IMG/VR virus record: IMGVR_UViG_2671180986_000014
DNA length: 35,930 nt
DNA from: a virus
Lineage: Duplodnaviria > Heunggongvirae > Uroviricota > Caudoviricetes
Reading direction: 5' to 3' (one strand)
Shown here in pieces: positions 1 to 26,659 of the stretch. Every line of letters starts with the position of its first letter. Position 1 is the stretch's first letter. The translations under genes and the position numbers were made by a program. The notes beneath the pieces are model-generated. The model searched no databases and was not told where the DNA came from. It was given only the letters and a program-made list of their open reading frames with translations.

Positions 1-996
1 CTAACGAACCAGCCAGACCAGCATCAGGATAATCGCGACTAACAGTATCCACAGCGCGGGACGCGTTGCCATATTTTGCAACGTGTCCATCATCGGTGGA
101 AAAGGATTAAGCAGCGGTTGCATATCACGCGGATCAATCCCTTTAACCCGCCGTTGATAAAGCTGATTAAGAATATCCTCGGCCTGGGCAGAAGAAAGCG
201 ATGATTGCGCAGAAAGACCATATTTTTGCTGGATATACGCCGATAACGCTGCCAGTTCACTGGCATCTAAAGGTTGTTTTAGCGCCATCTGTAGTGATTC
301 CAGCGTCGGCGTATTTTGCTGGCTTAACGTCTGGCGCGCCTGCAACCAGGTCACCAGATGGTTAAACAGTTTCGCTGGAATTAACTCGCCATCGTTCACC
401 CCGGAAAGTTCCAGCATCGATTGCCAGATCTGTTTGCTGGGTTCCCCCGTTGCCGCCGCAAGTTTGGTCACCAGCTGTTTTAGCGCATTGTGCTCCGCCG
501 GTAATAAAGGACGGTCGGTCGCCTCGCGCTGCTGTGGTTGCGGAATAACCATCTTCCCTTCCTGCAACAGGGTGAGAATGGTTTTTAATTGCTCCGGTGA
601 GAGCTGATTCAGCGGCGTCTGACCAAAGTTATGACGGATATAATCCGTGACCGCCTGACGATTATTCCCCAGACGTAAATACTCCCCTAATTGCGCTAAA
701 AGCTGGCGGGCAGAATGGCTTTTTTGCGCGGCCAGCAGACGTTGCGCCAGATTATGCTCAGCGGCAGGGAAGTGACGCGAAAGCAGCGGTGAATCTCCCG
801 ACAGACCAATATCGTGCCTGATACCCGCCCACAGTTCTGCTCTTTGTTGTTGCGTCAGTGAGGTCACTTTCGTCATTAAGCTTTCCAGCGAAGTACGTTG
901 CTGACTGGATAAAGGCTGATTGCCCGCGCCAGACGGCAGGTTATCTCCCTGACCTGGTGGTTGCCCAGGAGGAGGGCCGGAAATAGGTTGTATCAT
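1..996 (-). CDS. flk: flagellar regulator Flk (host gene, complete)
   Basis: 331-aa ORF, ATG at 994-996, TAG at 1-3; Pro/Gln-rich N-terminus and hydrophobic C-terminal anchor match enterobacterial Flk as I recall it. Confidence 0.85.
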   Translation of the reverse strand: MIQPISGPPPGQPPGQGDNLPSGAGNQPLSSQQRTSLESLMTKVTSLTQQQRAELWAGIRHDIGLSGDSPLLSRHFPAAEHNLAQRLLAAQKSHSARQLLAQLGEYLRLGNNRQAVTDYIRHNFGQTPLNQLSPEQLKTILTLLQEGKMVIPQPQQREATDRPLLPAEHNALKQLVTKLAAATGEPSKQIWQSMLELSGVNDGELIPAKLFNHLVTWLQARQTLSQQNTPTLESLQMALKQPLDASELAALSAYIQQKYGLSAQSSLSSAQAEDILNQLYQRRVKGIDPRDMQPLLNPFPPMMDTLQNMATRPALWILLVAIILMLVWLVR

Positions 997-1195: not shown

Positions 1196-1228
1196 GAGTA
1201 AGCCCGCAACATTGCGGGCTTTGTCTTA
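1196..1228. terminator. GC-rich hairpin (gcccgc / gcgggc) with T-tract on the plus strand, immediately 3' of the methyltransferase stop
   Basis: inverted repeat 1202-1219 followed by tttgtctt; the U-tract is better on the plus strand than on the minus strand. Confidence 0.4.
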
Positions 1229-2017
1229 TGGTTCGATCGCCGTTTTGAGCCGTTGTGTTGCTACATCAAAATAATGATCACTGGTTTCTATACCAATAAA
1301 TTTGCGTCCTGCTTTCAGTGCTGCAACACCCGTTGTTCCCGATCCCATAAAAGGATCAAGGACTGTTCCACCACTATTCGCAGTTCTGACCAGTTCTGCC
1401 ATAAGTACTTCTGGTTTTCCGGTCGGGTGCATTTTCTTTGATGGGATAACCGGGAACGTCATGCAGCCGTCGAACGGTCCCGAAGGCGATTTACCTAAAT
1501 GGCCTTTACTGCCCCAGACGATGTATTCGCACTGATGCCGGAAATACCCCGTATGGGGTGTTCGTGACCCCCTTCCTTTGTTCCACGCAATGATGCCGCG
1601 CCATGTAAAGCCACTGGCCTGAAACGCATCGGTTAAAGCAGGCAGTTGTCGCCAGTCAGTAAATACCAGGGCATAACCACCCGGCCTGACTGCGCGGTGT
1701 GCCTGTGCCATCCATAATTGTGTCCAGTAAGCCCACGAACGGGCATCCATATTTTCACCCGCAAATCCATCAAAGCGGTGAAGGCTCTCGCTGTTCAGAT
1801 ATTTTGCGTGGCTGCCCTGGTTGGTGCGTCCGGCCTTGTGTGTCGCGCCCGAACTGTAAGGCGGGTCAGTGATTAAGGCATCAATACTTTCTGGCTCAAT
1901 CAGCGGCAATATTTCCAGTGCATTCCCACGACAGAGCGTGGCATTGTCAGTCTGATAAACCTTAGTGTGTTCCGGTGTATGTGCTGGTTGGTGCTGGATT
2001 GCGATCCCCACGGTCAT
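1226..2017 (-). CDS. DNA methyltransferase, beta-class N6-adenine/N4-cytosine type (DPPY motif N-terminal, FxGxG AdoMet motif C-terminal); prophage cargo
   Basis: 263-aa ORF; motifs ITDPPYS and DPFMGSGTTGVAA read directly; GAGGAG ribosome-binding site before ATG at 2015-2017. Confidence 0.85.
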   Translation of the reverse strand: MTVGIAIQHQPAHTPEHTKVYQTDNATLCRGNALEILPLIEPESIDALITDPPYSSGATHKAGRTNQGSHAKYLNSESLHRFDGFAGENMDARSWAYWTQLWMAQAHRAVRPGGYALVFTDWRQLPALTDAFQASGFTWRGIIAWNKGRGSRTPHTGYFRHQCEYIVWGSKGHLGKSPSGPFDGCMTFPVIPSKKMHPTGKPEVLMAELVRTANSGGTVLDPFMGSGTTGVAALKAGRKFIGIETSDHYFDVATQRLKTAIEP

Positions 2018-2437: not shown

Positions 2438-2750
2438 AATGCCGCAATTTCCGTGCCTGCAAACCTGAATCGCAACTCACAAGGTGATGTGTGGAGGATC
2501 CAGATTATCGCTACTGCGGTTAAACACAGTAGCAAGGTTTTTAACGGAATTTGCGTCATAGCGCTTGCTCCTTTGCTGGAGAGGCGCTAACCTTCTACTT
2601 GCTGAGGGTAGATGGTCAGGGCCTCGGGTTAACATTAAAGTTGACTCGGGGCCTTTCCACATCTGGCCTTCGGGTATTCCCTCCAGCCATCAGCCGAAAG
2701 GCACCCGCGCGTAATCTATCGCTTTTTTGTTACTCCGGCAATTCTGCCTG

Positions 2751-3011
2751 TTAATTCTGAGGGAAAGGCAAACTCATCTGATTGTTTCCCCTGTGTGAAG
2801 CTGGCAGCTCATGCCACGGGATACCTTCTGATGAGTGAACGCCGGAGGCGTGTTTCGATGTGAATTTATGGAAAGCTTCCAGTGTTGAGAAGCATACGCC
2901 GCATTCCAGGTTGTTACACTGGTAATACTTTTGCCGCACGGTGTTTGAATCATTTTCCGGACGACTGGTGCGGATACGGGCAGATGCGCCACAAAGCGGA
3001 CAACGGAACAT
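2751..3011 (-). CDS. ogr: Ogr/Delta-family zinc-finger late-gene transcriptional activator
   Basis: 86-aa ORF starting MFRCPLCG with a four-Cys arrangement like P2 Ogr; AGGGAGG ribosome-binding site; sits beside D as in P2. Confidence 0.85.
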   Translation of the reverse strand: MFRCPLCGASARIRTSRPENDSNTVRQKYYQCNNLECGVCFSTLEAFHKFTSKHASGVHSSEGIPWHELPASHRGNNQMSLPFPQN

Positions 3012-3053
3012 AGCGACCTCCCTTAACGTGGTGCTGTCGCTATTCTAAGTTCC

Positions 3054-4267
3054 TCACTCTGTTTCCGCTATCCATTCCGGGATTTTTGCCTCAAGCTCAA
3101 GCTGTGTGGTAAAGCCGCTGTTATCAATGGTGTGCCCGGCTTTTGCAATAATCCAGTCCTGATTATCGATGTCACTTTTGAAGCCTGTCACCGTGCCATG
3201 CATTTCAGGGTAGAGTTCTGCACGTCCACGCGCCAGCGTGATGGAGAAGGATGCGGCTCCGCGTTGTANNNNNNNNNNNNNNNNNNNNNNNNNNNNNNNN
3301 NNNNNNNNNNNNNNNNNNNNNNNNNNNNNNNNNNNNNNNNNNNNNNNNNNNNNNNNNNNNNNNNNNNNNNNNNNNNNNNNNNNNNNNNNNNNNNNNNNNN
3401 NNNNNNNNNNNNNNNNNNNNNNNNNNNNNNNNNNNNNNNNNNNNNNNNNNNNNNNNNNNNNNNNNNNNNNNNNNNNNNNNNNNNNNNNNNNNNNNNNNNN
3501 NNNNNNNNNNNNNNNNNNNNNNNNNNNNNNNNNNNNNNNNNNNNNNNNNNNNNNNNNNNNNNNNNNNNNNNNNNNNNNNNNNNNNNNNNNNNNNNNNNNN
3601 NNNNNNNNNNNNNNNNNNNNNNNNNNNNNNNNNNNNNNNNNNNNNNNNNNNNNNNNNNNNNNNNNNNNNGCGCGTTCACGCCACCGCCTGGCATAATGAA
3701 TAACAGATTACCGCTTTTTACCGTGGTGACTGCGCCCAGCATTTCCGCCATGCGCGTAAGGAAGGACATGTCGCTTTCTTCAGTCTGGTCGGCGTGGTCG
3801 ATTTCGATATCCATCAGCATTTCGCTGATTTGCGGTTTCAGACCGTACCGGTGAGCGATGGCGGATACCACACGCTCAATGGTCACATCATGCCAGGACA
3901 CCTCACGTTTAACGTTAAATTCATCCCGAAAATCTGCGCTTCTGGCTGAAACAGTCAGCCTGTCCGGCGGTCCTTCGTGAGCGATTTCATCAACAATATA
4001 AGTGCCTTTTTCTGTCAGTGGTTCTCCTTTCCAGCCAATGAGAACCGTCAGGCGCGCGCCCCGTGGTGGTAGCTGCAACTGACCATCTGCATCATCCAGC
4101 GTGATGGTGAGCTGGTCCGCTTCAAATCCCCGGTTGTCGGTCAGTGACAGGCTCATCAGTCGCTCTGTCACGTCGGGCAGTGTTTCACCTTCCGCGAGAA
4201 TATCAAAATCCGGCATTTTCACGGGGTCTGGGCCCTGACTGAGCAATTGCATGGTGGTGTCGGTCAT
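3054..4267 (-). CDS. D: tail protein D (late control D family); interior masked by 401 N
   Basis: N-terminus from ATG 4265-4267 (AGGGAGG ribosome-binding site); true C-terminus found in a different frame from the track, ending ...PEWIAETE with TGA at 3054-3056. Confidence 0.8.
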
Positions 4268-4424
4268 CTGTTCCCTCCCTGTGCGGCATGGTCGCATGTG
4301 CGTGCGGAGGGGGTTACTGCTTTTTGTTGTCGCCGTGGCGGGAGAACGGCGCAGGGGTGAGATTACGCGCGTGGTGGGTGATGATTGTTGCCGAATCATT
4401 TAACGGATACAAGGGGCTGAAGCT

Positions 4425-5609
4425 ATGAGTGAAACTCGTTTTCATGGTGCCCGTGTTACGGAAAGTACCAACCTGGTAACAGCGATTAATGATGTTGATT
4501 CCAGTGTTATCGGTATCGTGGCAACGGCGGATGATGCGGACGCGGAGCTGTTCCCGCTGAACAAGCCCACACTGCTGACCCGCGTCAATGACGTGCTGGG
4601 AAAATGCGGAACAACGGGGACGCTTTATCGTGCGCTTAAGGCCATCGCAGACCAGGTGAGCACAAAGGTGATCGTCGTTCGCGTGGCTGAACACAAAGAA
4701 GAAGACGGAAAAACGCAGGATCAACTGGTTATCGGTGGTTCTGAATCTGACGGCAGCTATACGGGGATGTATGCGCTGCTTGTTGCAGAGCAGGATGAAA
4801 GCATCGGATACCGTCCGCGTATTCTGGCCGCGCCGGAGCTGGACACGGAGGCGGTAACAAAATCCCTGTGCGTGATTGCAGGTAAACTGCGCGCGTTTGT
4901 GTATGCCTCATGTCACGGCTGTAACACGATGGCTGAGGCGATTACCTACCGCCAGAAATTCAACGAACGTGAGGTGATGCTCTTATGGCCGGACTTCATC
5001 GCCTGGAACCCGAAAAGTGGCAAAAACGAAACGTTCCCCGCGCCTGCCTATGCGTGCGGCCTTCGTGCGTACATTGACCATGAGCAGGGCTGGCACAAAT
5101 CATTGTCCAACGTTCCGGTTAAAAATGTGCTGGGGATGTCGAGGCATGTGTTCTGGTCGTTGCAGGCCGAAGACAGCGATGCCAACAGCCTCAACAACAA
5201 AGAAATCACGACCATTATTCGTCGTAACGGGTTCCGCTTCTGGGGCAACCGCACACCGGAAACGAACGCCTACATCTTTGAGGTGTATACCCGAACCGCA
5301 CAGGTGCTGGCTGATTCAATTGTGGAAGCGCAGTTTGAAACCATCGACAGTCCACTGACGCCTGCGAACGTGAAGGATGTTATCAGTGCCATCAGGGCAA
5401 GACTGGATTCACTGGTGACTGCCGGGAAACTGATTGGGGCGTCGTGCTGGTATGACGTGGTGGATAACGGCACCACGGATTTACGTCAGGGGCGCGTGCG
5501 TATTCGCTACAAATATACGCCCGTTCCGCCACTGGAAGATATGGAGCTTTACCAGACGTTTACTGATGAATTCTTTGGTCCCGCATTTGCGGTGCTGGGA
5601 GGTGTCTGA
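4425..5609 (+). CDS. FI: contractile tail sheath protein FI
   Basis: 394-aa ORF with P2 FI-like motifs (KLRAF, RELM..WPDF, IRRNGFRFWGNRT, YKYTPVPPLE); AAGGGG ribosome-binding site. Confidence 0.9.
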   Translation: MSETRFHGARVTESTNLVTAINDVDSSVIGIVATADDADAELFPLNKPTLLTRVNDVLGKCGTTGTLYRALKAIADQVSTKVIVVRVAEHKEEDGKTQDQLVIGGSESDGSYTGMYALLVAEQDESIGYRPRILAAPELDTEAVTKSLCVIAGKLRAFVYASCHGCNTMAEAITYRQKFNEREVMLLWPDFIAWNPKSGKNETFPAPAYACGLRAYIDHEQGWHKSLSNVPVKNVLGMSRHVFWSLQAEDSDANSLNNKEITTIIRRNGFRFWGNRTPETNAYIFEVYTRTAQVLADSIVEAQFETIDSPLTPANVKDVISAIRARLDSLVTAGKLIGASCWYDVVDNGTTDLRQGRVRIRYKYTPVPPLEDMELYQTFTDEFFGPAFAVLGGV

Positions 5610-6121
5610 TGGCTGTACCAAAAAATCTTCGTTTTTTTACGCTGTTTGTGGATGGTGAAAACGAAGTGGGTAAGGTGACGTCCGTCACTCTGCCTAAACT
5701 GACGCGCAAAACCGACAGCTACCGGGGTGGTGGCATGATGGGGGCAGTAAGTATTGATCTCGGCCTGGACGACTCCGCGCTTGATGCGAGCTTTGTCATG
5801 GGGGGCGCAGTTCGTGAGTTGTTCCTGAAGTATGGCGGCACGATTGACGGTACGCTGCTGCGTTTTGCGGGTGAATACTACACCGACGCTGAAAGCGACC
5901 TGTATGAAGTCGAAATGCGCGGACGTGTGACGGAAATTGATATGGGGGAAGCCAAACAGGGTGAGGCCACATCACACACTTACGCCATTAAAAACACCTA
6001 CTACAAGCTGAGTGTTAACGATCGCCCGTTGTGGGAGATTGACCTGCTGAACTTCATTTACCGGAAGGACGGCAGGGACATTGTGCCCGATCGCATCCGT
6101 TCCGCGCTCGGGCTTGGCTGA
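5609..6121 (+). CDS. FII: tail tube protein FII
   Basis: 170-aa ORF; start overlaps FI stop (TGATG); LPKLTRK...YRGGGM and FAGEYY resemble P2 FII. Confidence 0.9.
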   Translation: MAVPKNLRFFTLFVDGENEVGKVTSVTLPKLTRKTDSYRGGGMMGAVSIDLGLDDSALDASFVMGGAVRELFLKYGGTIDGTLLRFAGEYYTDAESDLYEVEMRGRVTEIDMGEAKQGEATSHTYAIKNTYYKLSVNDRPLWEIDLLNFIYRKDGRDIVPDRIRSALGLG

Positions 6122-6175
6122 TAAGTAATATGCAGGCGGCGCAGTGCGTCGCCTCTGACTGAAAGGAGTTTCCTG

Positions 6176-6614
6176 ATGAAAGAGACGAAAAACATCGATA
6201 CCGAAAACACGGTAGTTACTGACACTGTGAAAGAAACCAGTGAGCGTGGCGTAAAACTTACCCAACCAATTGAGCGAGGCGACGAAAAAANNNNNNNNNN
6301 NNNNNNNNNNNNNNNNNNNCGAAAAAATCACGTATGTGGAGATCTCCGGGGCTATTGAGCAGGCTGGTTCTCTGCGAGATTTGTCGCTGTCTGATGTGCT
6401 GAATCTGAAAGCGGAATCCATGTTTACGCTGCTGTCACGCGTGACATCACCGCGACTGGATGAAGTGACGATCAAAAAAANNNNNNNNNNNNNNNNNNNN
6501 NNNNNNNNNNNNNNNNNNNNNNNNNNNNNNNNNNNNNNNNNNNNNNNNNNNNNNNNNNNNNNNNNNNGCGGTGCGGACTCTGGCGGGAAGAACGAACAGG
6601 CGCCGGAAGCCTGA
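6176..6614 (+). CDS. E: tail assembly chaperone E and frameshift extension E' (two N runs inside; boundaries approximate)
   Basis: AAAGGAG ribosome-binding site and ATG at 6176; A7 run at 6474-6480 at the expected E end is a candidate -1 slip site; a second frame ends at 6612-6614. Confidence 0.65.
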
Positions 6615-6622
6615 TCACGGTT

Positions 6623-9600
6623 GTGTGCTTTGAGCACATAGAAGACTTTGTGGCAGATATTGCCGTTATTTTTAACTGGTCGCCCGCCGAAATCTNNNNN
6701 NNNNNNNNNNNNNNNNNNNNNNNNNNNNNNNNNNNNNNNNNNNNNNNNNNNNNNNNNNNNNNNNNNNNNNNNNNNNNNNNNNNNNNNNNNNNNNNNNNNN
6801 NNNNNNNNNNNNNNNNNNNNNNNNNNNNNNNNNNNNNNNNNNNNNNNNNNNNNNNNNNNNNNNNNNNNNNNNNNNNNNNNNNNNNNNNNNNNNNNNNNNN
6901 NNNNNNNNNNNNNNNNNNNNNNNNNNNNNNNNNNNNNNNNNNNNNNNNNNNNNNNNNNNNNNNNNNNNNNNNNNNNNNNNNNNNNNNNNNNNNNNNNNNN
7001 NNNNNNNNNNNNNNNNNNNNNNNNNNNNNNNNNNNNNNNNNNNNNNNNNNNNNNNNNNNNNNNNNNNNNNNNNNNNNNNNNNNNNNNNNNNNNNNNNNNN
7101 NNNNNNNNNNNNNNNNNNNNNCTTGGCGGAGAGCTGAANNNNNNNNNNNNNNNNNNNNNNNNNNNNNNNNNNNNNNNNNNNNNNNNNNNNNNNNNNNNNN
7201 NNNNNNNNNNNNNNNNNNNNNNNNNNNNNNNNNNNNNNNNNNNNNNNNNNNNNNNNNNNNNNNNNNNNNNNNNNNNNNNNNNNNNNNNNNNNNNNNNNNN
7301 NNNNNNNNNNNNNNNNNNNNNNNNNNNNNNNNNNNNNNNNNNNNNNNNNNNNNNNNNNNNNNNNNNNNNNNNNNNNNNNNNNNNNNNNNNNNNNNNNNNN
7401 NNNNNNNNNNNNNNNNNNNNNNNNNNNNNNNNNNNNNNNNNNNNNNNNNNNNNNNNNNNNNNNNNNNNNNNNNNNNNNNNNNNNNNNNNNNNNNNNNNNN
7501 NNNNNNNNNNNNNNAAAACTTGGCTCTGAAACGCAGTTCACCGCAGGCGATGCCGCCAGTGGACAGGCATTTCTTTCAATGGCTGGCTTCACACCGCAGG
7601 CCATTCAGGCTGCGCTTCCCGGCGTGCTGAGCATGGCAACGGCTGGCGGTATGGACCTCGGCGAGACGGCAGATATTGGTTCCAATATCCTGACGCAGTT
7701 CGGCCTTTCTGCTGACCAGATGGACCGGGTCGGTGACACACTTACCGCAGCGTTTACCCGTACCAACACTGACCTTCGCGCACTGGGCGAAACCATGAAA
7801 TATGCAGGTCCGGTGGCGGGTAAGCTGGGAATATCGCTGGAGCAGGCCGCAGCGATGGCGGGCGTGCTGGCGAAGATGGGTATCAGGGGGAGTGATGCAG
7901 GTACAGCGTTGCGTAAAAGCCTGGCCAATCTGTCATCACCGCCAAAGGCAGCGGCAGAAGCACTGAAAGAGCTGGGGGTGTCAGTTGCTGACGCCAAAGG
8001 CAAAATGCGCCCGATGGAGAATGTGCTGGCCGATCTCTATAAAGCCACCCGCAAATACGGGGAGGTTGACCGGGTATCGTTCTTTAAGGACATTGCCGGA
8101 GAAGAGGCTTTCACATCATTTATGGGCCTCGTTGATGCGGCAGGTGACGGCTTCTTAGCCAAACTGAGAAAAGAACTTGAAGGCGCGCGCGGTGAGGCAG
8201 AACGCACGGCAAAGGTTATGGCCAATAACCTTGATGGCGACCTGAAATCACTCGGCAGTGCATGGGAAGGTCTGCGTATTCGCATCAGTGATCTGGTTGA
8301 CGGTCCGCTGCGTTCTGTCACGCAGTGGCTCACGCGGGTTGTCTCAAAGGTGACGGCGCTGGCGCAGGCCCACCCGGCACTGACGCGCCAGTTACTGATA
8401 GCGGGAGGCGCACTGCTGGCGACAACAGCAACGGTTGGTTCGTTGTCTCTGGTTATTGGGGTGCTTCACGGGAAGCTGGCTACGTTGCGTCTCGGTTTTT
8501 CTCTCCTGACCGGATCAATGAATGTTGTCAGGGTTCTGCCTGCATTATGGGGAATGGTGACGGGTTCCGTTTCTTTACTGGGAGGCGCTATCGGGGCGCT
8601 GTTCAGTCCGGTTGGATTGATTGCTGCTGCGTTTGTGGCTGNNNNNNNNNNNNNNNNNNNNNNNNNNNNNNNNNNNNNNNNNNNNNNNNNNNNNNNNNNN
8701 NNNNNNNNNNNNNNNNNNNNNNNNGGTTCTCATCTGGAAATACTGGGATCCCATCAGGGCATTTTTTGCCGGGGTGTTCAGCGGGATTATGGAAAGGCTG
8801 ACCCCGTTGCGCGAAACCTTTGAACGGTTTGGCCCTGTTTTTGATGTCGTGCGCGATGGGATTATTCAGGTCTTTAACTGGTTTAAATCGCTGCTGTCAC
8901 CGATGGAGTCCGGCAAGGAAACGCTGGATAAATGTACCAGTGCTGGCGAGATATTCGGTAACGTTCTTGGTGGCGCGCTACATCTTGTTCTGACGCCTGC
9001 AAAAATGTTGCTGGATACGCTGGCGTGGATACTTGAAAAACTCGGTGTGCTTCCGGATGAAGCGGAAAGGGCGAGAAAGAAAATCGAAGACGCACAGCGT
9101 GCGGCCATTCTTCAGGACAAGGTTGCTCTGTTTCAGGGAGACATTGCGAAAATCAATCCGCCGAAGTCTGCGGAAAATGGCAATGGCACCGGAGGCGATA
9201 AACCCAAAGACAACAAACCGCTCACAGACAGCAATACCGGCACGCTACGCAGACTCAGCAAAATTGCTGATAACACAGGTAAGCTGGTTGATGAGACAAA
9301 AAAACGTATTGGCCCCGGCGATATTGTCTTTAAGAACCTGCCCCGCGCACTTGCTGTTCGTGGGGAGTGGCAGGAGCGGAAGATTGCGCAGGTCAGTAAG
9401 CCTGCTTCCGCAATCAACATCACACCCGTGGTCCCGACTCCGCTGCCTCCGGCGCTGGTCCCTGTTGTTGCGGCCAGCTCCCGCCCGGTGGCGGAGGCCA
9501 TACGATCGCCAGTGGCATCAGTTCCTGCAACTTCCCGTAACCGGGAGCCTGTTGCCTCCGGATTTGGCGGTGAAATTCATGTTCATCTGCATAACGTTGT

Positions 9601-9706
9601 TACGCAGAATCCCCGCGAACTGGCGAAACTGGTCGGTGAAATGGTCAGGGCAGAAATGGAACGGCGCGCCCGTGCCGGGCGTGGCAGTTTTTACGATAAA
9701 GATTGA
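6623..9706 (+). CDS. T: tail tape measure protein T (start uncertain; about 0.9 kb masked)
   Basis: long Ala/Gly-rich ORF with hydrophobic central segments, TGA at 9704-9706; sits between E' and U. Confidence 0.8.
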
Positions 9707-9712
9707 GGAGTT

Positions 9713-10207
9713 ATGGCCATGATGATGATCTACGGCATGTTTGTTTTTGAGCTGCGCACGCTGCCGCATCAGCAGTTACAGCAAAACAAAAGCTGGCGGC
9801 ATGTGAAAAATGAACGCGTTAACCGTTCAGCAAGCTGGCAGTATATCGGTGCAGGTGATGATCGCATCGTTCTTTCTGGTGTGCTTTATCCTGAAATTAC
9901 AGGTGGCGAAGTATCGCTGTCGCTGCTGACCACGCAGGCGTATACAGGACGACCCTGGCCTCTGATTGATGGCGTCGGGCAGATTTACGGCATGTATGTC
10001 CTGACCGGAACGAATACGACCCGTTCCGAGTTTGATCGCTACGGTAAGGCGAAAAAGATAGAATTTTCACTGACCCTTGAACGCTGTGATGAGGATTTGC
10101 GGGAGCGCCTGCAATCCTCATCGTTCAGCGATATGCTGTCCGGCTTCAAAGATAAGGTGACAACATCCATTAACAACGCGGCCAGTTCAGTTAAAGGGCT
10201 GTTCTGA
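9713..10207 (+). CDS. U: tail protein U
   Basis: MMMIYGMFVFELRTLP...SWRH resembles P2 gpU; GAGGAG ribosome-binding site favours ATG at 9719 over 9713. Confidence 0.85.
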   Translation: MAMMMIYGMFVFELRTLPHQQLQQNKSWRHVKNERVNRSASWQYIGAGDDRIVLSGVLYPEITGGEVSLSLLTTQAYTGRPWPLIDGVGQIYGMYVLTGTNTTRSEFDRYGKAKKIEFSLTLERCDEDLRERLQSSSFSDMLSGFKDKVTTSINNAASSVKGLF

Positions 10208-10218
10208 TTTAACACAAT

Positions 10219-10250
10219 AACCGCTAATGGTCAGATTAGCGGTTATTTTG
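10219..10250 (+). terminator. rho-independent terminator after U (10-bp stem, T-tract)
   Basis: aaccgctaat / attagcggtt followed by attttg. Confidence 0.6.
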
Positions 10251-10255
10251 TCAGG

Positions 10256-10408
10256 GATAAAACCCAGCTATGGGACTCACAGCTACGGCTGGGCATCATT
10301 TCCGACGAGAATAAACAAAAATTAACCGAGTGGATGCTCTATGCGCAGAAGGTCGAATCCACAGACACCTCCAGCCTGCCAGTAACATTTCCCGAACAAC
10401 CAGAATGA
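10256..10408 (+). pseudogene. 5'-truncated remnant of a second tail-fibre assembly (tfa) gene, C-terminal ~50 codons only
   Basis: start-less frame ending TGA 10406-10408 encodes ...LTEWMLYAQKVESTDTSSLPVTFPEQPE, parallel to the G C-terminus ...[26 protein letters not shown]. Confidence 0.5.
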
Positions 10409-10410
10409 GA

Positions 10411-10440
10411 GAAGGCCCGATATCGGGCCTTAATTTTTAT
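10411..10440 (+). terminator. hairpin plus T-tract between the tfa remnant and the 3' end of G
   Basis: aggcccgat / atcgggcct followed by taatttttatt; overlaps the G stop codon. Confidence 0.4.
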
Positions 10441-10964
10441 TCAGGCTTTTGTGGCCATTCAGGATTTGCCGTATCCACACGGCTGACCAGAACACTGTAG
10501 CGTTCCCATGACTCCAGTCGTGCGTGTTCCTCATCCGTCGCCATATTCAGCCTGACAGCGCGTTCCAGCGGCTGGATGACTGATTCAGCTTCGGAAAGTA
10601 ACGCGGCCTTTTGTGATTCGGCCTGTTGCTGCTGTTCGTCTGCTGTATAAGTCCTCCTGACCACCGCTCCGTCCTTAAACATCCACTTCCCTGAATCATC
10701 GGCACGACGGTTAGCTGTTATATCGGGGATTTCAACGACGCTAAAACCTTCAGGATTAAGCGTGGAGGCATCTTTAGTGACGGCGACAATAATATTATTT
10801 TCGTCGTAAACAATCTTTATTGTATCCGGCTGAAAGTTCTTCACTTCCTCATACCAGTTTTTCCCGTCTTCAGCGTAAAGCCAGATGACTCCGTGCTTCT
10901 TTGTTAACTCATACTGCTCCAGTGTTTTAGCATTACCCGCTTTTATGTTCTTTAAGTGCATCAT
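10437..10964 (-). CDS. G: tail fibre assembly protein G
   Basis: 175-aa ORF directly after H; typical Tfa C-terminus. Confidence 0.85.
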
Positions 10965-10965
10965 A

Positions 10966-13052
10966 TTAAACGCTCGCTACATTATACCATGTGCCATTTA
11001 TATACTTTTGAACGGGTCTGTAATAAACGCCAGCTATATTATCGGCAGAGTTTTTGCCTGTATCCTGAACATTAATACCAGACAATACATGACCTGAAGG
11101 GCACTGGAAATTCCATGTTTGCCAGTTATTCACACCATAATATTGCTGTGAGCCAAGCCGGACATCTTTCACATATCTGGAGTCAAAATTGCCATAATTG
11201 CCGGGAATAACTTGCGCACCACAAAGCCAGTTACCGTTATTATCCATGTACGCCTGACCATCGGTGCCATTGGCTGTCCTTGAGTTATTAATCATGTAGA
11301 TGCCAAATTGCCTATTTCCCAGCCCACCAATCATAAATTTGCGATCAGCATGGTCCTGACGAAGTAATGCCTGCGCACCATCGGTGGATACCGCATTGCG
11401 TCCCAAAATAACATTCTGGTCACGCATATGAATCCACATGCCGGTACTACTGTTAATTGCAAAACGGTTTGCAAATATATCTCCTGTAACAACCAGACCA
11501 TGCCCCATGCTTATCCGGCCAGTTCTGAGATTAAGCGTAAAGGGGCGTAATGGCCCTATATTACCATTTTCTCCCTCATTCTCTCGTGTAGGGATGATAT
11601 GCAGGCATTCTTCAGAACGGCGAAAAATGGCACCAAAAGATGAATTAAATATCCTCAGTGCATTGACTGTCGATATTTTCACTTCACTGCTGAAAAGGGC
11701 TTTAACAAGAACAGACAAAGCATTCCATTTAAGATTCATCAGGTCTTTAGGCCGGGTGCCAATGATGCGGTGTCTCCATTTGAAATACTCATTGCCGTTG
11801 TCGCCTGTTTCAAACCACATGTATGAATCAGTGTCGCTGTCGGCATCATTTTTAAATCCAATCTTCGCCCAGTCAGTATTCCGAATCCAGGCAAGGATTG
11901 AGTCGTTTTCAAAAGTAAGTCCGCCGGACAAGGTATCGCCTGTCTTTTGAACGGCATTACCAGCCTTGTTTACCGTTTCCTGTAAACCGAGGTATTCGAT
12001 AACGGCGGCAACGGTCGATTTCGCAAGAATATCCCGCCCGACTTTTGTCAGGGTTGCCAGGCTGGCGACATCATTCCCCGTAAAATACGGAAACCTGTCT
12101 GCCGCAGTAGCAAGCCCCGCCAGCGCCGTCAGAGTGGCATCTTTCGGTTGCTTACCCGCAAGCGCGTTAGTCATGGTGGTCGCAAAATTCGGGTCGTTGC
12201 CCAGCGCCGCCGCCAGCTCGTTCAGTGTGTTCAGTGCATCAGGCGAAGAGTCTACAAGTGCGGCAATCGCAGCCATAACGAAAGCCGTGCTTGCGATTTG
12301 GGTATTATTCGTTCCCTGTCGCGCAGTTGGTGTTGTTGGCGTTCCGGTCAGTGCCGGGCTGTTTAATGGGGCTTTCTTGTTCGTTTCATCCATTACTGCC
12401 TTAACGGCTTTTGGTGTCGCTGCCAGCGTTTCAGACGTGCTGTTGGTGGCGTNNNNNNNNNNNNNNNNNNNNNNNNNNNNNNNNNNNNNNNNNNNNNNNN
12501 NNNNNNNNNNNNNNNNNNNNNNNNNNNNNNNNNNNNNNNNNNNNNNNNNNNNNNNNNNNNNNNNNNNNNNNNNNNNNNNNNNNNNNNNNNNNNNNNNNNN
12601 NNNNNNNNNNNNNNNNNNNNNNNNNNNNNNNNNNNNNNNNNNNNNNNNNNNNNNNNNNNNNNNNNNNNNNNNNNNNNNNNNNNNNNNNNNNNNNNNNNNN
12701 NNNNNNNNNNNNNNNNNNNNNNNNNNNNNNNNNNNNNNNNNNNNNNNNNNNNNNNNNNNNNNNNNNNNNNNNNNNNNNNNNNNNNNNNNNNNNNNNNNNN
12801 NNNNNNNNNNNNNNNNNNNNNNNNNNNNNNNNNNNNNNNNNNNNNNNNNNNNNNNNNNNNNNNNNNNNNNNNNNNNNNNNNNNNNNNNNNNNNNNNNNNN
12901 NNNNNNNNNNNNNNNNNNNNNNNNNNNNNNNNNNNNNNNNNNNNNNNNNNNNNNNNNNNNNNNNNNNNNNNNNNNNNNNNNNNNNNNNNNNNTAATTTTT
13001 TTGCACCCGTATCGGTGATAATGGTTTTAAATTTTCGTGTTGTGGTACTCAT
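10966..13052 (-). CDS. H: tail fibre protein H (540 N inside)
   Basis: N-terminus [20 protein letters not shown] and the long C-terminal part resemble P2 gpH as recalled. Confidence 0.85.
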
Positions 13053-14477: not shown

Positions 14478-14828
14478 TTACTCCCTCAGCGTGATGGTTA
14501 ATTCAACATTCTGCATGGTCTGCATGACAGTGCCCGACAGCGTCACCCCGGCGTGGCCTCCTGCCTTCCAGACAACGTCGATGGCGTTCAGGGCAATGCG
14601 TGGTTCCCATCGTGTCAGTGCAATCACGGTAGCACTCATGCATTGCAGACGCGTGGTGTTATTCATGGGTTCGTCAATCAAATCAGGCACAAGGCTGCCA
14701 TATTCCCGTCGCATAACCCGGCTTGCCAGCGGGGTGGTCAGGATGTCCCTGACTGACTGTTTCAGGTGCGCCATATCGTTCAGGTTTCCCGTCCCGTCCG
14801 GGTTCATTCCTGTGTAGCGGGTTGTCAC
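14478..14828 (-). CDS. W: baseplate protein W (GPW/gp25 family)
   Basis: 116-aa ORF; position and size. Confidence 0.8.
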   Translation of the reverse strand: MTTRYTGMNPDGTGNLNDMAHLKQSVRDILTTPLASRVMRREYGSLVPDLIDEPMNNTTRLQCMSATVIALTRWEPRIALNAIDVVWKAGGHAGVTLSGTVMQTMQNVELTITLRE

Positions 14829-15406
14829 TGCGGGCCTCCTGTCGAATCGCTGCCACCTTTAACGCCACCGTGCTTATGCGTATGCACTGTGATGCCGTTT
14901 GAGGTGAAATCGCCGCCGCTGTGCGTGATATTGCCGCTCATCGTTCCCCCTTTTGTGACGTCAAGCGTCGCTGTTCTCAGAAGGTCTGTGCATTCCACGA
15001 CGGGCGTATCCAGTTTCACGCTGACGGATGCCTGCAAAGTGGCCGTTTTCATGCCGCTGGCGCTCAGTGCGCCTGCGTCCGCGTCGTAGCGGAACACCGC
15101 GCCATCCGGCGCGCTGACCACGATTTCTTTCAGGCTTTTGCCGGGTGCCGGAATGGCATCACTCCACAGACTGCCAATTATCATGGCGGTTTCCGGGTTG
15201 CCGCCGATGCAGGCAATTACCACCTGTTCGCCGGGTGATGGCGGCAACCACACATTGAAGGCACCCGCGCGCGAGGTGTTCCAGCGCAGCCAGCCTGTTT
15301 CCAGTTCGCCGCTGCGAACGCGCACGCACCAAGATTCCTCATCAACTTCAGAGATGATCCCGGTGCGGATGATATTGCTCAGCAGTCGCATGAGTTCTGC
15401 GCTCAT
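14825..15406 (-). CDS. V: baseplate spike/assembly protein V
   Basis: 193-aa ORF with Gly-rich C-terminus; start overlaps S stop. Confidence 0.85.
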   Translation of the reverse strand: MSAELMRLLSNIIRTGIISEVDEESWCVRVRSGELETGWLRWNTSRAGAFNVWLPPSPGEQVVIACIGGNPETAMIIGSLWSDAIPAPGKSLKEIVVSAPDGAVFRYDADAGALSASGMKTATLQASVSVKLDTPVVECTDLLRTATLDVTKGGTMSGNITHSGGDFTSNGITVHTHKHGGVKGGSDSTGGPQ

Positions 15407-16038
15407 CGTACAGCCTCCGCAATCCGGCCCAGCACCGTGTTATAAATCAGGCGCTCATCTGCCTGGCTGATACCCAGCAGCTCACGTACCGGGTAATCGG
15501 TGAAAATGCCCGGCGCAACCTGATCGCGCTCACCGAACTGATGAACGCGTGCAATACGTGCGGCCACGCCGCTGTAACCCACCGTCACACCGGAAGCATC
15601 TGCACGGGCTTTCAGGTAGCGGGCGGTGCGCAGTTTTACGAACATGGGGACGCGCCTGGTGCTGTCCTGGTTGATGCGCCGGGTGCGTATTTCCAGAAAA
15701 CGGTCGATGTCATCCCGGTAAAACGTGCGGATATTGTTTTTATCCTCATCCCACCCGGTGATGGTTCGCCCGTATTTCCCCGTGTCGTGATGCCAGTTTT
15801 TCAGCGTGCGTGCTTCGTTATTCCAGATAAAGCGAATGCGCTCCTGTATCCGGGTTACGCGGCGTCTGCGTGGTGTCCATGCGGTCCCGTCCGGCGCTTT
15901 CTGTGACCGGATACGCGCCTGCTGGGCGCGGCGTAAATCCTGTGCCAGCTTTCTGGCGATGTTATTAATGGCCTGCTGATTCAGGCTGTCGCGGATAGCC
16001 TCAAAGGTTTCATCCACGCGGGTGAATGCCTTATCCAT
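15403..16038 (-). CDS. S: tail completion / virion morphogenesis protein S
   Basis: 211-aa ORF; position between R and V. Confidence 0.8.
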   Translation of the reverse strand: MDKAFTRVDETFEAIRDSLNQQAINNIARKLAQDLRRAQQARIRSQKAPDGTAWTPRRRRVTRIQERIRFIWNNEARTLKNWHHDTGKYGRTITGWDEDKNNIRTFYRDDIDRFLEIRTRRINQDSTRRVPMFVKLRTARYLKARADASGVTVGYSGVAARIARVHQFGERDQVAPGIFTDYPVRELLGISQADERLIYNTVLGRIAEAVR

Positions 16039-16666
16039 CGCTTTCCCCCCACGTCACATCCTGGAATACATGCGACCAGTCGCCTTCGGAAGAGGGCAGG
16101 CGGGGTTTTGGCTCCGGCAGGTGTTCTGCCTGCGGTGTGCCCTGACTGCTGCGCGTGATGCGAACGCGTTCCCGCAGGGGGAGCGTAAACAGGAGATCGG
16201 CGCTGTCATCGTCATTGATAACGGCGGAAAATTTGATGTCCTGATTACGCTCCGGATTGAGCAACAACTGTGGCTGATTTTCGGATAACCACGCCAGCAG
16301 CGGCAGCGTGAGGTCGTCCAGCTCTCCGGCGTAATCCATGACAAACATCACTATCTGATAGCGGTAAACAAACGATGGGGTTTCTCCGGTCGTTTCAATG
16401 TTGNNNNNNNNNNNNNNNNNNNNNNNNNNNNNNNNNNNNNNNNNNNNNNNNNNNNNNNNNNNNNNNNNNNNNNNNNNNNNNNNNNNNNNNNNNNNNNNNN
16501 NNNNNNTGACAAACATCACTATCTGATAGCGGTAAACAAACGATGGGGTTTCTCCGGTCGTTTCAATGTTGCCGCTCTCCACGAAAATGGTGAATTTTTC
16601 CGGGTTGGCATGACACCACCGGCATGAACGGGTCATGGCTTCACGCAGGGAATCAGTTTTCAGCAT
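16031..16666 (-). CDS. R: tail completion protein R (ORF inflated by a 103-N run flanked by identical 65-bp copies)
   Basis: MLKTDSLR... N-terminus, AGGA ribosome-binding site; removing one copy plus the N run (168 nt) gives 155 aa. Confidence 0.8.
   Translation of the reverse strand: MLKTDSLREAMTRSCRWCHANPEKFTIFVESGNIETTGETPSFVYRYQIVMFVXXXXXXXXXXXXXXXXXXXXXXXXXXXXXXXXXXXNIETTGETPSFVYRYQIVMFVMDYAGELDDLTLPLLAWLSENQPQLLLNPERNQDIKFSAVINDDDSADLLFTLPLRERVRITRSSQGTPQAEHLPEPKPRLPSSEGDWSHVFQDVTWGESDG
16339..16403. repeat. 65-bp exact direct repeat, copy 1, abutting the N run 16404-16506
   Basis: identical to 16507-16571. Confidence 0.9.
16507..16571. repeat. 65-bp exact direct repeat, copy 2
   Basis: identical to 16339-16403. 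Confidence 0.9.
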
Positions 16667-16973
16667 GGTTGTTTTCCTCGTTGTTCAGTCGTTGCAGCCT
16701 GCGCTGTTCCAGTAATTCAATGGCCCGCTTATCGGCGTTACAGGTTTCCAGTGCGTCCATGAGGCTGTCGCTCCATATCCCGATGTTTCCCCATGATGGC
16801 GTCACCGGAAACGGCGGGGGAAGTACGGGGGCGGTCAGCCCTTCCGGGATGAAACGGAACGACGGCGGCGGCGCGGACGCGTTCTGCGTGCTGGTGCAAC
16901 CGCTCAGTAAAGCGAGCGTCAGGAACAGCGCGGGCACATGCATCTGTCGTGATATCGTTGCGTAGCTGTTCAC
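16653..16973 (-). CDS. outer-membrane spanin (Rz1/LysC-like lipoprotein), overlapping the i-spanin out of frame
   Basis: signal peptide with lipobox LLSGC, Pro-rich mature part; likely start at internal ATG (16943). Confidence 0.55.
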   Translation of the reverse strand: MNSYATISRQMHVPALFLTLALLSGCTSTQNASAPPPSFRFIPEGLTAPVLPPPFPVTPSWGNIGIWSDSLMDALETCNADKRAIELLEQRRLQRLNNEENNHAEN

Positions 16974-21822: not shown

Positions 21823-22833
21823 AGTTTTTGCCCNNNNNNNNNNNNNNNNNNNNNNNNNNNNNNNNNNNNNNNNNNNNNNNNNNNNNNNNNNNNNNNNNNN
21901 NNNNNNNNNNNNNNNNNNNNNNNNNNNNNNNNNNNNNNNNNNNNNNNNNNNNNNNNNNNNNNNNNNNNNNNNNNNNNNNNNNNNNNNNNNNNNNNNNNNN
22001 NNNNNNNNNNNNNNNNNNNNNNNNNNNNNNNNNNNNNNNNNNNNNNNNNNNNNNNNNNNNNNNNNNNNNNNNNNNNNNNNNNNNNNNNNNNNNNNNNNNN
22101 NNNNNNNNNNNNNNNNNNNNNNNNNNNNNNNNNNNNNNNNNNNNNNNNNNNNNNNNNNNNNNNNNNNNNNNNNNNNNNNNNNNNNNNNNNNNNNNNNNNN
22201 NNNNNNNNNNNNNNNNNNNNNNNNNNNNNNNNNNNNNNNTGCATGATGGCCAGCCGGATGTGATGGCCGCAGGAAAGANNNNNNNNNNNNNNNNNNNNNN
22301 NNNNNNNNNNNNNNNNNNNNNNNNNNNNNNNNNNNNNNNNNNNNNNNNNNNNNNNNNNNNNNNNNNNNNNNNNNNNNNNNNNNNNNNNNNNNNNNNNNNN
22401 NNNNNNNNNNNNNNNNNNNNNNNNNNNNNNNNNNNNNNNNNNNNNNNNNNNNNNNNNNNNNNNNNNNNNNNNNNNNNNNNNNNNNNNNNNNNNNNNNNNN
22501 NNNNNNNNNNNNNNNNNNNNNNNNNNNNNNNNNNNNNNNNNNNNNNNNNNNNNNNNNNNNNNNNNNNNNNNNNNNNNNNNNNNNNNNNNNNNNNNNNNNN
22601 NNNNNNNNNNNNNNNNNNNNNNNNNNNNNNNNNNNNNNNNNNNNNNNNNNNNNNNNNNNNNNNNNNNNNNNNNNNNNNNNNNNNNNNNNNNNNNNNNNNN
22701 NNNNNNNNNNNNNNNNNNNNNNNNNNNNNNNNNNNNNNNNNNNNNNNNNNNNNNNNNNNNNNNNNNNNNNNNNNNNNNNNNNNNNNNNNNNNNNNNNNNN
22801 NNNNNNNNNNNNNNNNNNNNNNNNNNNNNNNNN

Positions 22834-26238: not shown

Positions 26239-26659
26239 GACATTATCCTCTTTTGAGTTGATGCCTGCCGCTATTCTGGCTTTGCCCGAACCCCCCTGCA
26301 AGCTGGTTATTCCATCAGATAATTTCACAACATCTCCAGCCCTGTAGCCATTATCGCCGGGCTGGTACTTACGTAACCCCGCAGTGCTGACTGCATGTTT
26401 CTCGCTGCCTCAGTGCGATTTTGACGGTCTTACCTTTCAGCCCATCAAATCAGAACCCCTCACGTCTTTTTCACGCTCAGCGTGAGAAATACAGCCATTC
26501 TGTTGTGTCGCTGCGACATCGTTCAGGGAATGCTATTTACCCCCTGAAACGCGGGCTGTTCCCCCGTCACCTGCGCGCAGAAAAAACGCGTTTTTTTGTG
26601 CACGCACGGATCCTTGACGGATCCAGTCGCCACGCGGGCCGGAAGGGTAAAAAGTTGTT

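Follow-up and report, generated by a model that had tools for sequence, protein, structure and literature searches.

Gene order around the FI–U tail block of a P88-like prophage, and a predicted activator dyad shared by divergent late promoters

In the sequence record of phage P2 the genes V W J I H G, FI FII E E′ T U D and ogr lie co-oriented on one strand. The DNA analysed here (the window, 35,930 nucleotides of a tailed virus) departs from that plan: D, ogr and the fibre genes share one strand, while FI through U occupy the other. Two questions follow. The first is whether the inverted block is a peculiarity of this DNA or the ordinary arrangement of a lineage; the second concerns the promoter from which D, now separated from the operon that serves it in P2, could be transcribed. 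We consider it very probable that the window holds a P88-like prophage whose gene order, fixed across its clade, stems from one old inversion, and in which a single Ogr-type dyad would be shared by divergent late promoters.

Orientation of the tail genes

Two genes on the minus strand precede the block. The first, ogr (2751–3011), encodes an Ogr/Delta-type zinc-finger late activator of 86 amino acids (Pfam PF04606, E=5e-14) with 42% identity to P2 Ogr across the zinc-finger region; the second, gene D (3188–4267), encodes the tail or baseplate hub protein. The match of D to Pfam Phage_GPD is weak because of an N mask at 3269–3669; by tblastn the protein is 96% identical to that of P88, which in turn shows 49% identity to P2 D. 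The open reading frame of D as listed reaches 4399; the conserved start is an ATG at 4267, and the start codon column is kept in 29 of the 32 related loci of the spacer alignment.

Across a divergent control region (4268–4424) the plus strand takes over with FI, the tail sheath (4425–5609; Pfam Phage_sheath_1, Gp18_domIII_N and sheath_1C; 46% identical to P2 FI), and FII, the tail tube (5609–6121; Phage_tube, E=1.6e-46). The tail assembly chaperone genes E and E′ follow (6176–6700, end approximate); they are partly N-masked, and the region is collinear both with gp47 and gp46 of P88 and with annotated genes of E. coli SK1144. T, the tape measure protein (6700–9706, start masked and approximate; PhageMin_Tail, E=1.7e-50), shifts frame across N runs and is collinear with P88 gp45, and the block closes with the tail protein gene U (gpU, 9713–10207; Phage_P2_GpU, E=1.5e-38). 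Back on the minus strand lie G, a tail-fibre assembly protein (10437–10964; Caudo_TAP, E=1.4e-36), and H, the tail fibre (10966–13052, masked at 12453–12992), whose translation matches P2 H. All six of the Peduoviridae tail-module homologues FI, FII, T, U, D and Ogr are thus present, as judged by Pfam and by tblastn with P2 and P88 proteins. At the edge of the window an open reading frame at 1–996, at first guessed from its size to be an integrase, found no support in Pfam or PHROGs; BLAST identified it as the host gene flk, which the prophage adjoins.

A first-pass annotation of this DNA had described FI-FII-E-T-U as inverted relative to P2, and the P2 record and a direct blastn alignment of the window to P2 bear this out: D, G and H align in minus orientation (G at 84% and H at 90% DNA identity), FI and U in plus. 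D and FI are indeed divergent, their spacer measuring 157 bp, and both junctions, D/FI and U/G, are free of N, the closest runs lying at 3269–3669, 6291–6319, 8642–8724 and 12453–12992. The P2 F operon, which runs from pF through FI FII E E′ T U D and reads on into ogr, contains the same genes, and the internal order of the FI–U block is identical. The difference lies in D. In P2 it follows U on the same strand without a promoter of its own, whereas in the window it lies ahead of FI on the other strand and faces away. The suggestion of a separate promoter for D is supported by the content of the D/FI spacer, where a conserved dyad is flanked by symmetric −10-like hexamers; D must have such a promoter, and the layout of late promoters accordingly differs from that of P2.

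Relatives and distribution of the flipped order

Over 2292–35909, some 33.6 kb, the window aligns collinearly with phage P88 (NC_026014; Peduoviridae, Xuanwuvirus) in reverse complement, at identities of ~87–98% in most unmasked pieces. On these alignments it is a P88-like (Xuanwuvirus-type) prophage of the P2 family, a placement made at the level of type since the whole-genome genus cut-off is not computable with ~17% of the window as N. The cargo of P88 beyond ogr is unlike that of the window. The tail genes of P88, P884B11 and Citrobacter phage Shae_phiSM are ordered as in the window – D(−), then FI FII E E′ T U(+), then the fibre genes (−) – and in this group the D/FI spacer is also 157 bp, with a dyad identical to the window's. 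The same flipped order occurs in Salmonella phage SEN4 (Senquatrovirus), Serratia phage KSP20 and xenorhabdicin-type loci of Xenorhabdus and Photorhabdus, which differ in that their FI is just 54–67% identical to that of the window. Existing annotations already show D divergent from FI in P88, Shae_phiSM, SEN4 and KSP20, and U convergent on the fibre genes in P88, Shae_phiSM and SEN4; the KSP20 fragment stops within T.

The implication that this DNA had undergone an unusual rearrangement therefore did not survive comparison, given that P88, P884B11, Shae_phiSM, SEN4 and KSP20 are ordered alike: the arrangement is the norm for the P88 lineage, though not for the whole P2-like family. The extent of that norm is evident from a census of gene order in the best 80 loci from species-representative genomes, with FI of each compared to FI of the window. 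Where FI was at least 54% identical, every locus (38/38) read ogr(−) D(−) followed by FI..U(+), with J on the minus strand in all 27 flipped loci in which J was detected; where FI was at most 51% identical, the order was that of P2 in 42 of 42 loci, so far as D and U were detected in them. Adding P88, SEN4, Kp4848-1, KSP20 and the window to the 38 genomic loci gives 43 P88-type loci, none of them in P2 orientation. The flipped set is monophyletic in neighbour-joining trees of FI, FII, U and D, and the agreement of these four gene trees indicates one old inversion.

Of 5426 complete E. coli genomes, 1358 (~25%) match the D/FI junction in one uninterrupted stretch, and the flipped order extends to prophages of about 20 genera of Enterobacterales. 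In a large P2-related lineage this order has long been fixed as the standard one, and it is ordinary. Our finding is thus mainly a correction: P2 is an unsafe gene-order template for P2-like prophages as a whole, since the flipped clade covers prophages in roughly one in four complete E. coli genomes as well as the Xenorhabdus and Photorhabdus loci of the census, and the flipped order should not be marked as a rearrangement in annotation. In the literature searched we found no remark on the inversion, or on a promoter for D, in P88, SEN4, phiSM, KSP20 or the xenorhabdicin loci.

The D/FI spacer and a predicted promoter of D

Among 32 related loci the D/FI spacer measures 147–162 bp, and 29 of them have a single TGT-N12-AC/GA in it, which falls at one and the same position of the alignment. 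In the window this is the predicted Ogr-type activator dyad TTGTTGT-N12-AGAAC (4324–4347), with its core TGT-N12-AGA at 4328–4345 and its centre at 4336.5. The core reads TGT-N12-AGA in the window, in P88 and in one subclade, and TGT-N12-ACA in most relatives; the latter is the consensus for P2 late promoters (PMC3931495). An exact scan of the window for TGT-N12-ACA returned seven matches, a number not above chance, and none within the D/FI spacer; because the window carries the TGT-N12-AGA version, the dyad emerged only through alignment across genera. The longer motif TTGTTGT-N12-AGAAC occurs exactly twice in P88, in the P/O and the D/FI divergent spacers, the former being read in P88 only, as the P/O spacer of the window (21834–22239) is N-masked.

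The dyad is flanked symmetrically. To its left, on the minus strand, lies GACCAT (4288–4293), the predicted −10 of a leftward D promoter with a start near 4281; to its right, on the plus strand, lies GATGAT (4380–4385), the predicted −10 of a rightward FI promoter with a start near 4392. On the left 26 of 30 loci, and on the right 27 of 30, have a hexamer of the form nAnnnT whose end lies exactly 48.5 nt from the centre of the dyad; these counts overstate independent support inasmuch as the loci are phylogenetically linked. At other offsets there is almost no signal. This spacing would put the dyad at about −55.5 from both predicted starts. The same design recurs in SEN4, KSP20 and the xenorhabdicin-type loci, whose spacers hold one TGT-N12-ACA dyad and −10-like hexamers at ±48.5.

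A close parallel exists within P2 itself. In the P2 record pP and pO share one activator site (3057–3087), and their starts, at 3016 and 3127, fall at about −56 and +55 from its centre. With the starts predicted for the window, 4281 and 4392, both systems would have a single mid-placed site with starts some 55 nt to each side and ~111 bp apart. They differ in what is driven, pP and pO serving the terminase and portal versus the head genes, and in standing: the P2 starts are mapped according to the record, those for D and FI are predictions. The pF side also resembles P2: the dyad is ~80–88 nt upstream of the FI start in flipped loci and 83 nt upstream in P2. A strict dyad is found ahead of FI in only 6 of 44 P2-order loci, P2-type sites being looser; in those six the geometry is the same.

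These observations suggest how D may have acquired a promoter. The ancestral inversion would have spanned the region from the pF control elements to the end of U, once and long ago, and would have left D beginning next to the upstream side of the pF activator site. One Ogr-binding dyad would then most likely serve two divergent late promoters: pF, running rightward through FI–U and ending at a hairpin after U (10212–10251), and a new pD, whose leftward transcript would cover D and probably ogr as well. We think it somewhat more probable than its negation that D gained a late promoter from the back side of the pF site, so that Ogr would act at two bidirectional nodes, P↔O and D↔FI, with feedback through D–ogr. 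The D–ogr pair would then be a separate Ogr-activated unit exerting positive feedback on ogr. A putative sigma-70-like promoter (GTGACA-18-GATAAT, minus strand, 3162–3191), picked up by a consensus scan upstream of ogr, overlaps the end of D; the P2 record annotates an ogr promoter at the equivalent position between the two genes.

Is the shared dyad needed for D at all? The D promoter might instead be independent of Ogr, for example constitutive or governed by another factor, with the dyad serving pF only. The reason to take this seriously is a GC-rich block of the CAYGCGCGCGCG family (4296–4309), situated between the leftward −10 and the dyad, which comprises the most conserved columns of the spacer alignment and could alternatively be the site of another regulator; the leftward hexamer GACCAT, moreover, makes a poor −10. 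Yet similar CGCGCGCG blocks stand immediately upstream of the −10 in P88 pP, SEN4 pP and SEN4 pV, and since these are dyad-associated late promoters, the block resembles part of a late-promoter core. A consensus scan found no sigma-70 promoter inside the spacer, and the leftward hexamer keeps the same distance from the dyad as the rightward one, mirroring pP/pO. An Ogr-independent promoter for D thus seems unlikely to us, although it is the most credible of the alternatives.

Should the shared dyad be the correct reading, late transcription from two nodes would be clearest in P88-type phages: their S and V genes overlap, which in P88 and the window leaves no pV spacer. SEN4 differs in keeping a separate dyad-type promoter ahead of V. 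No extra late-promoter dyad was seen between the lysis genes and R in the window (16640–16830). The literature searched yielded neither a description nor a test of a D/FI promoter pair, and the by-product of our analysis is a testable prediction: that within the 157-bp spacer a single Ogr-type dyad activates transcription of D as well as of FI. If true, it would illustrate how a new promoter can arise when an inversion puts an activator site that is already in place to further use. The regulatory scheme is well understood, and what this adds to it is modest.

The U/G junction and a lost invertase module

At the other end of the block U and G converge, as the first-pass annotation had stated, and two stable hairpins lie between them. 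The first, at 10212–10251 on the plus strand, is an inverted repeat (−19.6 kcal/mol, z −5.46) that is also present downstream of U in P88 and is likely the terminator of the FI–U transcript. The second, GC-rich and found by a terminator scan (10412–10431), folds on both strands (z about −4) and would act as a convergent terminator. Between them alignment to P88 and SK1144 places the 3′ remnant of an alternative tail-fibre assembly gene, U′ (10250–10408, plus strand), 99.5% identical to the tail-fibre assembly DNA of SfMu.

A DNA invertase is encoded beside the U end in P88 and many E. coli prophages, which raises the thought that FI–U is itself a reversible segment, flipped by a Gin/Cin/Hin-type enzyme and caught here in one of two states. 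We regard this as highly improbable. The inverted repeats found are short chance pairs, and none connects 4268–4424 with 10208–10436; a single orientation is seen in all P88-type loci, and the D/FI junction is contiguous in 1358 complete genomes. Furthermore, SEN4 has the flipped order and no invertase, and the window has lost the invertase gene entirely. Less credible still is an assembly error or a recent rearrangement private to this strain, which has nothing but the difference from P2 to recommend it and is contradicted by the recurrence of the same unmasked junctions in over a thousand complete genomes and in phage isolates that were sequenced independently.

The loss of the invertase can be traced to a deletion. 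Compared with P88 the window is without 1979 bp between U and G, the deletion junction falling at a TTGT microhomology (10248–10251); the missing module comprises the DNA invertase, an alternative fibre tip and the 5′ portion of the alternative assembly gene whose remainder is U′. P88, phiSM and most E. coli prophages have the invertase and invertible fibre tip, which are not necessarily lineage-defining. The module is also missing from 13 E. coli genomes, and in the one examined, SK1144, the deletion has different ends.

Layout of the tail block and its occurrence among relatives

The P2 reference record reads, rightward, V W J I H G and then FI FII E E' T U D and ogr, with fun(Z) between G and FI on the opposite strand and pF annotated as the promoter for FI through D. 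For the window, Pfam scans and an ORF listing put FI (tail sheath, 4425-5609), FII (tube, 5609-6121), the E/E' and tape-measure region (ending at 9706) and gpU (9713-10207) on the plus strand, flanked on the minus strand by an Ogr/Delta zinc-finger gene (2751-3011) and D (3188-4267) on one side and by G (tail-fibre assembly, 10437-10964) and the fibre gene H (from 10966) on the other. Direct blastn aligned D, G, H, I and J with P2 in reverse and FI and U forward, which, together with the P2 record, bears out the inversion of the FI-U block reported in the first-pass annotation; we are close to certain of the flipped order. By design, the window lacks the placing of D after U that marks the canonical P2 F operon. 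Both junctions lie in unmasked sequence, as had been claimed, neither being touched by any of the 25 N runs. A strong hairpin (10212-10251; -19.6 kcal/mol, z -5.5) lies 3' of U, and a GC-rich one (10412-10431) 3' of G.

D and FI do diverge, across a spacer one base shorter than the 158 bp first given. The mechanically called D ORF extends to 4399; the true start of D is the ATG at 4267. This codon follows a ribosome-binding sequence and agrees with the start annotated in P88, and 29 of 32 relatives in the spacer alignment conserve its column as a start codon. That leaves 157 bp (4268-4424) for the D/FI spacer.

The implication that the flip is unusual did not hold. When 2700-11000 was compared with phage records by megablast, P88 (Escherichia phage P88, NC_026014), P884B11, Shae_phiSM, PhiR44_2 and others matched it at 93-95% identity in a single collinear place, and reverse-complemented P88 is collinear with 2292-35909. 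In the P88 and Shae_phiSM annotations D occupies one strand and FI to U the other, followed by converging fibre genes; a gpD-like gene also diverges from a gpFI-like gene in Salmonella phage SEN4, of a different genus, and in a Serratia phage KSP20 fragment (2009). Of 5426 complete E. coli genomes, 1358 contain the 2.6-kb D/FI junction stretch as a single contiguous match (approximately 97.6% identity). The element is a member of the P88-like lineage with that lineage's standard layout, and the arrangement has stood in deposited, annotated phage genomes since 2009-2017; our literature search found no paper commenting on the flipped order or on a D promoter.

A wider census used an alignment of six FI proteins as anchor, took the best 80 loci with one genome per species, and relied on tblastn to find D, U, FII, ogr, I and J. 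The loci divided cleanly. Wherever FI was at least 54% identical to that of the window (38 of 38 loci), ogr and D lay on the minus strand directly upstream of, and divergent from, FI to U. J, detected in 27 of these 38, was downstream on the minus strand in all 27, as was gene I with one exception (L017). The flipped loci come from Salmonella, Citrobacter, Enterobacter, Kosakonia, Symbiopectobacterium, Mixta, Trabulsiella, Erwinia, Klebsiella, Raoultella, Brenneria, Pantoea, Pectobacterium, Yokenella, Providencia, Photorhabdus, Morganella, Xenorhabdus, Dryocola and Chania. The other 42 loci, with FI at most 51% identical and including Burkholderia, Ralstonia, Pseudomonas and Acinetobacter, had P2 order in all 41 where D and U were detected.

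The D/FI spacer and predicted late transcription

The expectation in the first-pass annotation that D would need its own promoter is sound. No sigma-70 consensus promoter was found within the D/FI spacer; ahead of ogr there is one on the minus strand (GTGACA-18-GATAAT, 3191 to 3162), and P2 likewise has an ogr promoter annotated at the matching place. Alignment of 32 spacers spanning the flipped clade revealed a dyad, TTGTTGTC...ACAAC, that is TGT-N12-ACA, the published consensus of the four Ogr-dependent P2 late promoters as quoted in PMC3931495; it takes the form TGT-N12-AGA in the window (4328-4345, centre 4336.5), P88 and a subclade. In 29 of the 32 spacers the dyad occurs a single time, where the alignment places it. 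Hexamers of the form nAnnnT end exactly 48.5 nt from its centre on the FI side in 27 of 30 loci and on the D side in 26 of 30, with hardly any signal at other offsets. The -10-like hexamers of the window are, on the plus strand, GATGAT (4380-4385) and, on the minus strand, GACCAT (4293-4288), and a conserved GC-rich block (4296-4309) lies between the latter and the dyad. An equal dyad-to-hexamer distance is seen in the SEN4 promoter before V and in those few P2-order loci where a strict dyad precedes FI.

In the P2 record a single activator site (3057-3087) serves both promoters of the divergent late pair, pP (start 3016) and pO (start 3127), whose starts lie about 55 nt either side of its centre. 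Where a hexamer ends 48.5 nt from the centre, transcription would begin about 55.5 nt from it. The geometry of the D/FI spacer is therefore that of pP/pO, and starts are predicted near 4281 (minus) and 4392 (plus). The exact 12-base TTGTTGT-N12-AGAAC has only two copies in the 35.8 kb of P88, one in the D/FI spacer and one in the divergent terminase/scaffold (P/O) spacer; the P/O spacer of the window is masked. A CGCGCGCG block, similar to the GC-rich one of the D/FI spacer, stands just upstream of the -10 in P88 pP and recurs in the pV and P/O spacers of SEN4.

We consider it fairly probable, judging from these sequence patterns, that one Ogr-type dyad would serve two divergent promoters: pF, whose transcript would run from FI to U and stop at the 10212-10251 hairpin, and pD, a putative clade-specific promoter for D, probably reading on into ogr. 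Only this bidirectional prediction is modestly new. The one live rival is a pD independent of the shared dyad, in which case the conserved block at 4296-4309 could belong to another factor.

S and V overlap by 4 nt in the window (14825-16038) and in P88, leaving no room for a P2-style pV. SEN4 (locus L090, 9263-9320) keeps an S/V spacer; in it are a TGT-N12-ACA dyad, the CGCGCGCG block and the hexamer GATACT, whose end lies 48.5 nt from the centre of the dyad. Members of the flipped clade thus differ in how many late promoters they have. Downstream of the portal gene, in a stretch of small ORFs, an exact TGT-N12-ACA (TGTTGTGTCGCTGCGACA) at 26501-26518 is conserved in P88 (11079-11096) and could be a further activator site or chance.

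Origin of the inversion and loss of the invertase module

Neighbour-joining trees place the flipped loci in one clade for FI, FII, U and D. Since every distant outgroup shows P2 order, that order is ancestral, and the simplest reading is a single old inversion, later fixed in the flipped clade. In the J tree the flipped loci are not monophyletic, with between-group identity of up to 76% (related loci L009-L088); this indicates recombination between both gene-order types in the baseplate/fibre region, and fits its usual mosaicism. A reversible flip driven by an invertase is excluded: no inverted repeats were found flanking the FI-U block, none of the 43 P88-type loci compared has the opposite orientation, SEN4 has the flipped order without an invertase, and the window has lost its own. 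The number of independent genomes with this order likewise excludes an assembly error or a private rearrangement.

The lost invertase belongs to a 1979-bp module that lies between U and G in P88 and in most E. coli relatives. Besides the DNA invertase, this module comprises the alternative fibre tip, Sv', and two-thirds, at the 5' side, of the alternative assembly gene, U'. It is missing from 10208-10436, where the deletion junction falls at a 4-nt TTGT microhomology (10248-10251) and a U' 3' remnant persists (10250-10408), so that the fibre is locked in one form. The module is also absent from 13 complete E. coli genomes; in SK1144, the sole module-less genome examined, the deletion ends differ from those of the window, and module loss therefore looks recurrent.

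Masked sequence, prophage end and cargo

N runs are longer than their counterparts in P88, in a Salmonella prophage and in E. coli SK1144: 83 N (8642-8724) against 4 nt, 29 N (6291-6319) against minus 8 nt, and 401 N (3269-3669) against approximately 290 nt, the run at 6481-6567 being affected too. Reading frames consequently shift across masks (T, D, H), and coordinates of mask-spanning ORFs are unreliable.

The ORF at 1-996 (minus strand) is flk, a host gene with a match in each of the 5426 E. coli genomes, which puts the prophage end near 997-1225. Next comes a type II DNA methyltransferase gene (1226-2017, minus strand), beside small ORFs that E. coli annotations assign to a Com-family regulator; this cargo beyond ogr differs from that of P88. 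In relatives, the short D/ogr spacer looks like a site where cargo is inserted. In SK1144 it holds a GmrSD restriction endonuclease gene (L089, 332-1915), and other strains carry a DUF2971 gene or IS1 somewhere within the matched flk-to-D stretch (hits H136-H140). The D/ogr spacer of the window is 176 bp, without insert.
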